A stretch of 64,000 nucleotides of DNA from Lama glama (lineage: Eukaryota), in contig CM052848.1 of NCBI GenBank assembly GCA_028534125.1, positions 13,082,001-13,146,000 of the forward strand. Direction: 5' to 3'. The notes beneath the pieces are model-generated. The model had not been told where the DNA came from. It did not search any database and saw only the letters and a program-made list of their open reading frames with translations. Shown one piece after another: positions 337-59,400 of this stretch. A program made the position numbers and the translations under genes. Each line of letters opens with the position of its first letter. The stretch's first letter is position 1.

Positions 337-870
337 ATGCTACTCGGAGCGCCCAGGCTGTGCGCGTCCAGGGCGGCCGCCGCTGCGCAGAGCGAGGGCG
401 ACGGCGACAGGCTGGGCAGGGACATGGACGAGTCGTCGCTGCTGGACCTGCTGGAGTGCTCCGTGTGTCTGGAGCGCCTGGACACGACCGCCAAGGTGCT
501 GCCCTGCCAGCACACCTTCTGCCGCCGCTGCCTGGAGAGCATTGTGTGCTCGCGGCACGAGCTGCGCTGCCCGGAGTGCCGCATCCTGGTGGGCTGCGGC
601 GTGGACGAGCTGCCCGCCAACATCCTGCTGGTGCGCCTGCTGGACGGCATCCGCCAGCGTCCCCGCCCCGGCGCCAGCCCGGGCGGCAGCCCGCCCGCGC
701 GTCCTGGTCCCAGCCCGGGCCCGGGCCTCGGCTCCAGCCCGGAGGCGGCCTCGGCGCACGGGGATTGCGGGGGCAGCGCCCCTGGCTCTCCGGTCCTCCT
801 CTCCGCGGCGACCAGCGCCACCGCCAGCCTGCGCGAGCTGGCGACTGGCAGGAGCGCGCCCCTGGCGAAG
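337..870 (+). CDS. SH3RF3: SH3RF3/POSH2 coding exon 1 (178 codons): N-terminal extension, C3HC4 RING finger, Pro/Gly/Ser/Ala linker
   Basis: ATG at 337 gives [21 protein letters not shown]...[81 protein letters not shown], which I recognise as the SH3RF3 N-terminus (SH3RF1 has CPVC and lacks the MLLGA extension). It ends at AAG|GTGAGT, a consensus phase-0 donor at 871. Confidence 0.96.
457..579 (+). other. SH3RF3: RING-HC (C3HC4) zinc-finger coding segment
   Basis: CSVC...CQH..CRRC...CPEC; all eight metal ligands are intact. Confidence 0.95.
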
Positions 871-53748: not shown

Positions 53749-56161
53749 ATGAGAAGATCCCAAAATGCAGCTGCTCCATCAGGATAAAATACTGCTTTTT
53801 CACAGGACATGCAGGCTCTTCTCCACAAGGTCATCTGAGGACCCAGGTCCTTCCCTCCTTTGCTCAGAGTGTAATCCTTGTGGAAAAATCTGCCCCTATC
53901 ATGCTGTTCAGGCCATGGGAGGGGAGTTACAAGAAATGGAATTTCCTTCTAAATGTCATTACAAAACACAGCCCAGAATTGTCACGAGGCCCTCTTGCTT
54001 GCCTGCGTTGACTGGGATTTTGACACATGGCCAAGGCCCTTGTGAGCAAGGCTGGGAGGTGAAGTTGTTAGCTGCTGAGCTTGGCCGCAGTTGAAACTTG
54101 GAAGCTTCTCCCCTGCAGGAGGAGCTGGTGGACTCCGGGGATGACGGGCTGTCTCTGCCGCCGTCTCAGCCCTTGCTTTGCTTGACTGCGCTGGGCGTTC
54201 CCCCAAGGGGCTGCTCACCATCTGGGGAACTCCCTGGGATGTTTCTCCCCCATGAGGCAGGCCCAATGTCTCCAGCTCCAAGCCTTCGCTCAGCCTGGCT
54301 CCTGTTTGAGCGATCACTGGGATTTCCAGCCCTCTGGGCCCAGTATACAATAGGATTTGGGGCTACATGGACCCTGGACCTCCCATCCTGGGAACAGTCC
54401 TTCCAGCACAAGGCCCTTGGCCAGGCCCTAAGCCAGCGATTGGCGTGGCGGCCCACACGGTCATCCATTCGGTAGGTGTTTCGAGCATGTGGTCTGCCCA
54501 GGCCAGGGTCGGAAACGCAACATCCAGCAAAAGCAGGCCAGTGTCGTGCGGGGGGCAGGGAGTCTACAGGGAGCTCCACAGGTAGCATGTGCTACCTGGG
54601 GAGCACCGAGTAAGGAGAACCAGTGAGTCCTCTGTCCATGCTCTTCAGCCCAGCCTTCTAGGGGTTGGGCAGTGAGGCCTGGTCCCAGGGAAAGCACCCG
54701 GGAGCCTGGTGGGCAGCCCAGTGCACGCAGTGCATTTGTGAAGCTGGCCTACACGTTGACTGGGAGGTGATGGAGATGGGGCTGAGGTGCTGGCAGGGGG
54801 TCCCAGCGCTCCACGAGTAGGAAGTTGCACTGGCAAGACTGTGCAACATCTAAGTCATGCGCCGTGAGGTTGACACTGTCTTAATTATTACTAGTGCCCT
54901 GCAGGGTCTTGTGTTAATTATCCCACAGCATCCCTTTGTGTTTCCGTTTTGTCTCCCTTTTACTTCTTTTTCTGAGCGTCGTGAGCCTGCAGAGTGGGGC
55001 TCAGCGCAACATTTGACTCAGCAGTCCCTGCAAGGGGCGCACGCACAGTGAGCGCTCAGAGGACGGGCAGGGCCCTGCAGGCCTCCTGGGCTGGGCTGGG
55101 GACTGGGGTCAGGGGTCCTCTGACTGCTGCTGTATCATCCCAGGGGGGTCTTTCCCCATAAGAGTGTTCGCCTGCCCTGGGCCCTCGTCATGGACTAGTT
55201 AGTTAATCTCATAAAGGGCTTGAAGATGAAAGGGTGGAGGTGCTGAGAGCCACTGGCTCTGGGCGTTTCCTGGCAGTGAGATCTGGGTTCTCATGGCAGC
55301 TGCCCTCTCGGTGTCGTCTTTGCCCCCAGAATTGCGTTTTGGGTCGTAGAGGTTACTGCCCTCTCGGTTTTGCTCTGTGAGCAGCTGATGGTGGGGGTCT
55401 GGGGAGGCATTCGTGATCTGGGTGTACCCCGCTCTCCCGGCCCTGCTCCCCTTTCCCTCCTCTCGTCTCCTCCTTGTCCACCGAAGGGAGCAGACAAGCG
55501 TGGCTGCCTCCCAGATGTGGCTGGAGCCAGTGAGGTTGGTTGCTTGCTCCCAGCCCTGCACTTGGACCTTGAGGTCGGGCTCTGACCTCGGGGTCGGGGC
55601 CTGGCCACCCACTCGGTCCACCCCTGCCTGTGCTCAGAAGGCGTCTGTCCCCTCTCCAGGCTGGAACTCGTGGGAACTAGGGATGGCCTTTTCCCGGACC
55701 TCTGGGGGTGGGTTTACAGCGGTTGCCACTTCCCCACTGCCGTGCCCCAGGCCCCGTCTCAGAAATAACCTGAGCACACGGAATTAATGGGCACATCTCA
55801 GGCCCCTGCCATGTCAAGGGGTGGTTGAACAAGCACCTAGCTCTCTCTCCTGGGACCTCGATGTAACAGTGGCCATGCGGTTGGGGGACTGATGGACCAG
55901 AGGGTCCTGGGAGATGGGAGAGCGTGGGCCGTGGGCTGTGGTGGGAGGGGTGAGGGCAGGCGGCAGGGGTGGAGGAAGCAAGCGTGTGGTCTAGGGGAGT
56001 TACCGTGGTGGGCCCCTCTGCAGTGCCCTCCTCCAGCAGGGCTGTGGCCCTGTGTTCCTGTGACGGGCCCCCTCCTGGGCTCTCAGACACGGGCCCGCGG
56101 TCCGGGCACCAGGCAGGCCAGGTGGGCAGCCGCTGAGTAACCAGTCGTGTTCTGCTTTCAG

Positions 56162-56416
56162 AGCCTTCCCCAGCCGCCCTCCAGCAAAGTCCCGCACAGT
56201 CACGAGGGGAAGGAGCCCGGGGACCTCAGGTTCAGCAAGGGGGACGTCATTGTCCTGCGGCACCGGGTGGATGAGCACTGGTACCATGGCTTCCTGCCCA
56301 CCAGCTACGTCCCAGGCCTGCGGCCCCTGCCCCAGGCCCCACCCCAGGGCAAAGCGCTCTATGATTTCGAGATGAAAGACAGAGACCAGGACAAGGACTG
56401 TCTGACCTTCAGCAAG
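56162..56416 (+). CDS. SH3RF3: SH3RF3 coding exon 2 (85 codons): degenerate SH3 domain 1 and N-terminal half of SH3 domain 2
   Basis: [85 protein letters not shown] contains the POSH-family motifs [21 protein letters not shown] and [20 protein letters not shown]. Acceptor tttcAG, donor AAG|GTAAGG at 56417; 255 nt, no stops. Confidence 0.93.
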
Positions 56417-59400
56417 GTAAGGTGGGCTCCAAAGCAGCCGCCCCCCCCCACCGCCCAGCCGGGAGCCTGGGCCTCGCCGTCCCGGCAGATGTGACTCCCA
56501 GCCCTCCCTGAGCCTCCTCAGGGGAGAGCAGTGGTTTCTTCTTCCTGAGGGTCGGCTGGGTGGAAGGAGGGGGCACACAGCCAGCCAGACGCCTGCTGGT
56601 AACAGGGACAGGGCCCTCATTACCTGAGTCACAGTGTGTCCAGGGCTCATGGGCCCTGGAAGGGGGCTCTCTGGGGAAACTGCAGCAGCGACCCCCGTCA
56701 GGTCCTGGGGTGGGAGCTGGGCCCGGAAGCCAGCCTGTCATGGTCCCTCCTGGAGAGCACAGGGGTGGACACTTGTACTTGGGTCATTCAAAGTGGCCAG
56801 TGAGGCCACGGGACCTGGTTAGTGAGAAACCAGTAGCATTTACTGCGTGCTTGTCCTGGGGGTGCGTCAGGTGGAGGGGCCTGGTTTCTGGCCTCCCGGC
56901 CTCAGAGGCGTGAAGTGCAGAGGGGACAGAGGTGAACGTCCCTCCTCCCTGGCTTCCCCACCTCCTCCTGCTCCGCAGGCTTCTGCCTGGCAGCAGCCGT
57001 GAAGTTACCTTCATTAATTAGTTAATTGCCTCTAGGACCACCAGGGTCCCCAGGGAGAGGTGGGAGCCTGTCTGCCCACGGTCAAAGCTCTAAGAGGCTG
57101 TGTTGCCACCTGGGGCTCGCTGGGCCCCGCCCTCCCCCACCTCCCAGTCCTGTCTCCTCCCGCCTCTCCCGGGCTCCCATCTCACTGCCTCTCAGGCGGG
57201 TGGGCGCGCGGGTGTAAACAGAGCTGGACTGCAGCTCCATCTCCGACTTCAGAGCCCACGGCAGCTCACCGTGCTTCTCCCGTCTGCTCGGCGCAGAACC
57301 TGGCTGTGAGTCCCCAGCGCTCCGCTTTGAGCAAAACTGGCTGGTTCTGTGCAGGCCTCACGCCGGCTGCCACTTGTGTCTTGTTCCCATTGTTCAGCCT
57401 GACGGTGAATGGTCTGCTTTCACTCAGGGATTCAGCTCTTTCCTCCTCCCTTCCATCAAGGTGTTCTGGTGATAATTCCCATTGTCATCTGGCCCTGCAG
57501 CTCCCTGGAGCAGCACCAGCCTCCCCCTCCCTCCCCCCCCACTCCCCCCCCAGGAGGCCCTCATGCTCACTTCTCCGCCCAGCCCCCCGAGAGACCCCTG
57601 GGCCCTGGCACTCTGCTATCACTTGGGACCAAGAGCAGAAACTCCCACTGCCCCTTGGGGTCTGGTCAGGCCCTTGTAAGGAGACAGACCTGTCATGGGT
57701 CCAGGCACAGACGCAGGGCGCTCCTCACAGCCTTCATGGCAGGAGACCTCACCAAGCAGGCAGCTGGCCACAGAGCTGGGGCCTCCAGTGTCTCCTGGCA
57801 AAGCCTCCCTCCCTTCACCTCCATCACCTGCTCCACGTACGAGCCTCTGCTTGGGACTCTCATCACTGGGGTGAAGAACAGAGCCCACTGGACGAGAGGA
57901 CAGAGGGGCATGTGTCCACTTGTCAACCAAACGTGCCGGCCTGACCCTGCCCTGGCGCCTGATGCCTGGCGGGAGAGATGGGGACACCAGTCCAGGGTCA
58001 TGTGTCTGGAGGACAGTTCCCGAGCATGAAGGGCTTGCGGGTCTCCCAGGGGGCAGACAGGGGTCTCGTAAGCACTGCACAGTCACATGGTGTTTAATGT
58101 CTGGTATTTCCAAAGAAGTCTTAAAGCCGCCTTCGTGGGAAAAGCGGGAACTCGTCCTGTGGTGGCGCCACTTGAGCTTTGCATCCCGCGGGGTCTGGGT
58201 CCTGGCGCCCGGCTGTGATGGGGGCGACCCCGTGGGCGGGGGTGTGGCCAGGAGGGGCAGACTTGGCGGCTCCTCCATGGGCACCCAGTGCGGGTGAGGG
58301 TGCGGGGCGGGGCGCGGACCTCAGGCCACTCTTCCAGGGCTTTCTTTCCTTCAATCCGTGTATGAACGTGGGAAGTTGGAGACCCCCGGGTGAGACTTCG
58401 GTGGGGACAGTGCTGGGACTCCCCCACGTGTTCCCTGCCGTGCTCACCCAAGCTTTATACCAGCACCCCGTGGGCCCCCTGCTCAGATGAGGGCACAGCT
58501 CCCGCACCCAGGCACCTGCTCTTTCTCATCTCTCACCCCCAGGTGCCTCCAGACAGCCTCCAAGGGGCATGAGCGAGGCCTCCTGGCTCTCCTGGCGGGT
58601 TTGCTGCCCGCGGGGCCGCTGAAGTTTCCCTCCGCTTGCTGGAACGCTGCTCTGACAGCCTGTCACCTGAAGTGGCCACGTGGTTCAGGCAGCTCGGTTT
58701 TGCTTCCAGGGAATGTTTTGTTGTTCGGATATGTCCATTCTGGCCTCAGCAAGGAAAGAGGGGGCGTCTCAAGTCCGTGGAGGATGCCTTTACCTTTAAG
58801 GAGCCTTGCTGTGATGGAATCGATTCGGTTTAAGACGGCACGAGGCATGAGCACCAAGGCAAGGCTCGCCCTTAGTGGCAGCTTCCGAACAGTCCTATTA
58901 AACTGCATTGATTGAAGCCACTCGAAAACCAGTCTTCGTTTCGTTTAGGAGGGGAAAGAATAGTTGCTTCTTGTAAAGCAGCTATAAAAAGCGAGTTTCA
59001 TAATTTCTTAGCAGCCTCACTTCAAAAAAGCTGAGCACGTGCGAACAAAAAGACAAAAGGAAGCAGCGCAGCGTCCCCTCTGTCAGCAGTTCTTTCGAGC
59101 TCTCCGTAGGCCTCTGGGGCACTGCCCTCCACGTGGCAGGGAGAGGCTCCGGCATCAGGGGCCCTGGGTGCAGGGCCTTCATGGTTAGGGGTCCCCGTGT
59201 GAGCTCAGCCCTGTGGCGTCAGGAGCCCATGTGTGACTCATCTCAGAGGTACCGGCACCCGAGCCGCAGTGGGACCCAGGCCCACCATCGCAGCCCCTGC
59301 TCATCCTCATCTCATGCCCCCCCTCCCCACTCAGCCCTGCAGGGCCCGAGGTGAGCTCCGAGTCAGCAGAGAGCACTGTTAAAACACCTCTGGTTGTCCT

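Follow-up and report, generated by a model that had tools for sequence, protein, structure and literature searches.

Introduction

The closest described systems to the gene studied here are human SH3RF3 and the related proteins SH3RF1 and SH3RF2. Human SH3RF3 is reported to have E3 ligase activity, to bind Rac1 and to act as a JNK scaffold (PMC7237486, PMC13557802), and in human cells its first and second SH3 domains bind JIP3 and JNK1, while the fourth binds MKK7 (PMC7237486). Published studies link the gene to breast cancer stem cells, to the age at onset of Alzheimer's disease and to autism-like traits in mice (PMC7237486, PMC13557802, PMC12999469). In the accessible parts of four papers (PMC12999469, PMC13557802, PMC12263621, PMC4389572), there is no mapping of the first SH3 domain (SH3-1) alone.

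Here we analyze a 64,000-nt stretch of Lama glama DNA, hereafter the window, in which an earlier reading of the letters (the original prediction) had pointed to a deletion within SH3-1 of SH3RF3. Sequences carrying the deletion are public and annotated as ordinary SH3RF3, and the variant appears to be undescribed in the literature searched, where we found no published account of an artiodactyl SH3RF3 deletion (genome-wide indel tables in supplements lie outside this scope). Judged by title or the start of the abstract, none of the papers found on SH3RF3 in cattle concerns domain structure.

Gene and exon structure

Coding exons 1 and 2 of SH3RF3 lie within the window on the + strand, and all ten exons were located in the Lama glama genome, with GT-AG introns and no mismatch. 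The ten-exon translation is identical to the alpaca SH3RF3 record P0125 at 846/846 residues, placing the gene nearer to SH3RF3 than to SH3RF1 or SH3RF2; matches to SH3RF1-like and SH3RF2-like exons are found on other contigs, at 64% and 50%. The genome holds one SH3RF3 exon-2 match, and no older retrocopy of the exon is present among the five matches there. The gene is SH3RF3 (POSH2), an intact coding gene.

Coding exon 1 (337..870) encodes residues 1-178, identical to P0125, and is directly followed by a GT donor. It contains the N-terminal C3HC4 RING finger (Pfam PF00097) at about 457-579, corresponding to residues 41-81 of P0125. Before the RING finger, at about 409-423, artiodactyls share the loss of a basic, arginine-rich stretch of about 11 residues that falls in two alignment blocks, and they also share four single-residue gaps elsewhere in SH3RF3.

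Coding exon 2 (56162..56416) spans 255 nt, or 85 codons, is in phase 0 at both ends and encodes the SH3-1 remnant, a linker and the first part of SH3-2. Its AG acceptor is visible in the sequence at 56160..56161, where RNA contigs also start (56160-56161), and its GT donor lies at 56417..56418, with loose ends of RNA contigs at 56417 matching the start of exon 3. Comparison with SH3 profiles, solved structures and orthologs delimits an SH3-1 remnant of 47 residues (56183..56323), and the alignment places the conserved first 23 codons of SH3-2 at 56348..56416. The camels differ from the window by a single residue in exon 2.

We observed further variation around this exon. Another in-frame AG is found 12 nt into it (56162-56173), and the human, walrus, pika, some primate and several whale gene models carry a run of residues at the exon-2 start that is unlike that of close relatives. 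These odd starts perhaps reflect use of a different acceptor or annotation carry-over. The C-run in intron 2 (56440-56451) differs in length among camelid sequencing runs.

The 21-nt deletion and its distribution

The codons for W-Y-H-G-F-L-P occupy 56279-56299 in the window. Relative to the first SH3 domain of human SH3RF1 (PDB 7NZC), the gap at this place is exactly seven residues, and the orthologous exon has 92 codons in donkey and horse, seven more than the 85 of camels, hippo and two whales. Both comparisons bear out the original prediction, which had claimed a 21-nt in-frame loss of seven codons from SH3-1 and an exon shortened from 92 codons to 85. Contigs from four genomic runs in four studies (one run being a possible source of this DNA) span the site with no inserted letters, and contigs from three RNA runs in three studies span the short exon, likewise with no inserted letters, and run on into exon 3; as contigs, these drop rare variants and do not allow expression level to be read. 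An eighth run (X24) contributed no reads at this stretch, and rows X20-X23, which had a small share or none, do not enter the comparison. The deletion is fixed and is not an assembly error.

The position of the joint is ambiguous. The junction originally given, 56290/56291, is one valid placement, at the right-hand limit of a set of equally good ones that slide left to about 56284/56285. This sliding is possible because outgroups have His-Gly at both ends of the lost stretch, where the window has a single His-Gly codon pair (56285..56290). The proposed collapse from Gly to Gly needs amending, as the repeat at the ends is His-Gly...His-Gly in 29/37 outgroup rows, including 3/3 horses and 6/6 carnivores. 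In human SH3RF3 the second His is replaced by Gln, so that the repeat is hidden from a human comparison. The SH3RF1 paralog in the same genome carries a 6-nt direct repeat exactly 21 nt apart at the matching codons. An exact-pattern scan of metagenome contigs returned no stretch of outgroup exon-2 DNA. The repeats fit a collapse of His-Gly to His-Gly, by slippage or microhomology-mediated joining, as the likely origin of the deletion.

To place the event, we fetched 445 records, 30 of which lack exon 2. The gap is present in 81/81 artiodactyl records holding the exon, whales included (77 assigned by name and four through their cluster or likeness, an assignment that is partly circular), and in 0/334 other vertebrate records (333 judged by pattern and one bat by eye); the records include isoforms and are not independent. 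The event is common to all sampled Artiodactyla rather than private to this genome, and orthologs in general do not lack the seven residues. Groups with the gap comprise camelids, suids, peccary, hippo, baleen and toothed whales, bovids and deer; carnivores, bats, horses and pangolins keep the residues, as does every more distant group. The pattern is most simply read as one event on the artiodactyl stem, roughly 60 million years ago or more. For the tree-based comparisons below, we used 30 artiodactyl and 37 other species on a species tree set beforehand rather than inferred from these data.

Effect on the SH3-1 domain

We mapped the gap onto a control model of a cat-family protein, in which strand 3 spans residues 231-236 and strand 4 spans residues 239-244. 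The gap covers residues 233-239, or up to 235-241 when slid, and so takes out the distal turn together with the larger part of strand 3 and the beginning of strand 4, in line with the earlier claim that the distal loop and parts of two strands are removed. The distal hairpin between strands 3 and 4 is missing from the SH3-1 remnant. A review places the distal hairpin in the transition state through which spectrin SH3 folds; it adds that a permutant cut in the distal loop still folds, along a different route (PMC3578095). Loss of the normal SH3-1 barrel, as originally proposed, is plausible.

Pfam SH3_9 finds three domains in 7/7 artiodactyl proteins and four in 3/3 outgroups; in the alpaca protein both SH3_1 and SH3_9 recover three stretches each (at E 1e-4), compared to four in cat, horse and pangolin, although SH3_1 still counts four domains in pig and hippo. 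The alpaca protein thus falls short of the four SH3 domains of SH3RF3, with its first SH3 recognizable as a remnant. Against a profile built from SH3-2, SH3-3 and SH3-4, the remnant in the window and alpaca scores 18.7 bits, compared to 38-51 for 32 background rows; the ruminant remnants score 11-16, and those of pig and warthog reach 32.8, above the full-length horse domain at 28.5. AlphaFold2 assigned SH3-1 a pLDDT of 28-35 in alpaca versus 88-90 in the cat-family control, a contrast to be read alongside the failure of the intact SH3-2 in alpaca and of the RING finger in both proteins; the full-length mean pLDDT is 41 in alpaca and 42 in the cat-family protein.

Besides the deletion, which is real, the domain carries further lesions: both the ALY motif and the Tyr after it are changed. 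The ALY-x-Y start motif is lost and reads V-P-H-S-H in camelids (56189..56203 in the window). Here, His codons at 56195 and 56201 stand in place of two tyrosines that bind peptides in SH3 domains. The first Tyr of the motif is changed in 30/30 artiodactyls on the tree. The Trp, Gly, Pro and Tyr of the conserved Trp and G-x-x-P-x-x-Y are all present in the window; ruminants and toothed whales have lost this Tyr. The Trp, the Pro and several residues of the core show no change in 30/30 artiodactyls.

Sequence change after the deletion

We compared SH3-1 with the rest of the protein, using as background mammals the carnivores, bats, primates, rodents and rabbits, afrotherians, armadillo, mole and shrew. 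Identity of the remnant to the outgroup majority is 52-74% in artiodactyls, compared to 85-92% for SH3-1 in the background groups. Across the RING finger and SH3-2, SH3-3 and SH3-4, identity is 89-100%, except for one mis-modeled peccary SH3-3, and changes in these domains relative to linker changes (22/391 versus 64/999 in the background, p 0.71) show no acceleration. SH3-3 (residues about 440-496 of P0125) has three stem substitutions and is otherwise nearly unchanged in the crown.

Change in the remnant is concentrated in particular sites and branches. Six peptide-face sites, picked after the alignment was seen, carry nine changes in artiodactyls and none in background mammals (p 9e-6), or five versus none without ruminants (p 8e-4); these are aromatic sites that bind peptides in SH3 domains. 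In the artiodactyl crown as a whole, remnant changes relative to linker changes number 51/367, compared to 48/999 in the background (p 7e-7), leaving out the peccary tip and one position with divergent whale gene models at the exon start (57/391 with them). This crown excess is due to the ruminants, at 30/73 or 4.3 times the linker rate (5.9 by likelihood), to which the stem adds a further share, with SH3-1 at 2.3-3.4 times the linker rate. The non-ruminant crown stands at 21/294, or 0.74 of the linker rate, compared to 0.50 in the background (p 0.14, not significant), and differs sharply from the ruminants (p 2e-8). SH3-1 is also the least conserved SH3 domain in background mammals, with primates at 1.1-1.2 times the linker rate.

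Judged from these sequences, the peptide face is released everywhere, and the rest of the remnant is held at about linker level outside ruminants. The slow non-ruminant change might come from splice enhancers, from some remaining packing or from the constraint usual for a disordered stretch. On the ruminant stem (P0206, P0282-P0295), we observed 15 changes in the remnant and 27 in the linkers, whose sites are ten times as numerous, a burst for which either neutral release or selection could account.

Horses (Equus P0208, P0297, P0302) and pangolins (Manis P0028, P0189) have each changed three peptide-face sites, to partly different residues and with no deletion. In the tree set, no SH3-1 change maps to the branch common to horses and artiodactyls, and no rhino or tapir SH3RF3 occurs among the 120 matches listed of 228 or among the cluster members listed, at most 15 per cluster. 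Relaxation could already have begun before horses and artiodactyls split.

Discussion

Lineage-specific decay of a domain under relaxed selection is a known phenomenon. The best explanation overall, and in our judgment a rather probable one, is that a single deletion on the artiodactyl stem left SH3-1 as a likely non-binding remnant within an intact gene. In the stem ancestor, slippage between the two His-Gly codon pairs would have removed the seven codons once. This would likely have ended normal proline-peptide binding by SH3-1, with the rest of the gene intact. Decay may then have been stepwise, starting with the deletion and six substitutions on the stem; camelids, pigs, hippos and whales would then have changed slowly, in a linker-like way, and the domain would have been released fast in ruminants. 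The remnant likely persists since the start of SH3-2 lies in exon 2 as well; the exon would have to stay in frame, and only in-frame decay would be tolerated. Annotated isoforms that skip exactly exon 2, and so lose SH3-1 together with the start of SH3-2, are found in the three camels, hippo, two whales and two horses checked. The scaffold would act through the RING finger, SH3-2, SH3-3 and SH3-4, giving artiodactyls three working SH3 domains instead of four, and SH3RF1 and SH3RF2, whose first SH3 is full-length in this genome, could serve as back-up for the lost function.

The alternative that fares best, less likely than the above but with a fair chance, is that the shortened SH3-1 still reaches a folded state, in which strands 3 and 4 would be merged or joined through a tight turn, and has a structural or non-canonical role outside ruminants, such as packing on SH3-2; ruminants alone would then have abandoned the domain. 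The non-ruminant rate, about six times slower than that of ruminants, points in this direction, as do the three changes in suids and the one in hippo below shared branches and the near invariance of the acidic RT-loop stretch and of Trp-Tyr-His-Gly and Leu-Pro. For the alpaca remnant, language-model features also point to SH3 clusters, at 0.88, which is below 0.9 and serves as a lead only. That fast decay falls mostly on the stem and in ruminants argues against a simple dead relic. However, the 21/47 remnant sites unchanged in the crown are fewer than in linkers (54-60%) and show no excess constraint; camelids carry the strand changes Ala-to-Val, Leu-to-Pro and Gln-to-Pro, a core Phe is changed in toothed whales, and the counts per lineage are small. 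A bolder form of this idea is that an SH3 without its hairpin, folded into a smaller unit, was of use to camels, pigs, hippos and whales over tens of millions of years until ruminants lost it, and that horses and pangolins lost the same face independently. We rate this slightly lower; if true, a JNK scaffold would have been naturally rewired three times.

It is improbable, in our view, that the loss was itself selected for, with JNK scaffolding rewired by the removal of SH3-1 and similar selection in horses and pangolins. The stem branch does show an excess, with six substitutions in the 47 remnant sites in addition to the deletion versus 18 in 478 linker sites (p 0.017), and the changes at three peptide-face sites in horses and in pangolins arose without a deletion. 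In human cells, moreover, SH3-1 and SH3-2 together bind JIP3 and JNK1 (PMC7237486). Relaxed selection nevertheless predicts the same pattern, as the linkers used for comparison are themselves constrained, and the replacement residues differ between lineages.

We give very little credence to GC-biased gene conversion, as opposed to loss of function, as the force behind the amino-acid decay of SH3-1. The GC3 of SH3RF3 is 0.85, and 18/20 polarizable changes on the artiodactyl stem are AT to GC. The bias is gene-wide, however, with SH3-1 (8:4) no different from the linkers (39:26, p 0.76), and we rejected it as an SH3-1-specific cause; remnant changes in the crown are balanced (20:21), and the conservation of the other SH3 domains would be left unexplained. 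As an observation in its own right, the AT-to-GC share on the stem compares to about a third in background mammals and suggests a gene-wide episode of GC-biased conversion there.

An assembly error, a private allele or a pseudogene copy can be set aside as next to impossible even in an assembly fragmented into 1,072,352 contigs, given that the 21 nt are absent from the contigs of all seven runs spanning the site, that the artiodactyl records agree without exception and that a single exon-2 match lies in an intact gene.

The preferred reading, a single stem deletion leaving a likely non-binding remnant, would make artiodactyl SH3RF3 a natural domain knock-out in a JNK scaffold. The human JIP3/JNK1 mapping lumps SH3-1 with SH3-2, and artiodactyl proteins offer a ready way to split them. 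Pig, sheep and cattle may model human SH3RF3 incompletely. Mammalian SH3-1 sequences further provide a graded natural series for SH3 folding, from intact through ligand face changed and hairpin deleted to fully decayed. The case should interest those who study SH3 folding, JNK scaffolds or the molecular evolution of mammals; it is not a novel type of system.

Comparison with known systems

Shared indels are rare genomic changes that serve as clade markers, and the clade of whales and even-toed ungulates is already well established. As such a marker, the deletion is a clean presence/absence character that unites whales with even-toed ungulates and confirms settled phylogeny only; what makes it of interest is its place inside a folded domain of a conserved gene.

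Compared to human and other vertebrate SH3RF3/POSH2 (NP_001092759.1, Q8TEJ3; P0319), the artiodactyl gene has the same RING finger, SH3-2, SH3-3, SH3-4 and ten exons, whereas its SH3-1 is seven residues short and the basic stretch before the RING finger is lost. The closest solved structures are the first SH3 domains of human SH3RF1/POSH (PDB 7NZC, E 3e-17) and SH3RF2 (PDB 2DJQ, E 1e-10); both have the distal hairpin, whereas the SH3-1 of the window is without it and its two N-terminal aromatics are gone. SH3RF2/POSHER has three SH3 domains, so a POSH-family scaffold can work with three (PMC7237486, PMC13557802). There the fourth SH3 is described as missing outright (PMC13557802), whereas here the first SH3 stays as an in-frame remnant.
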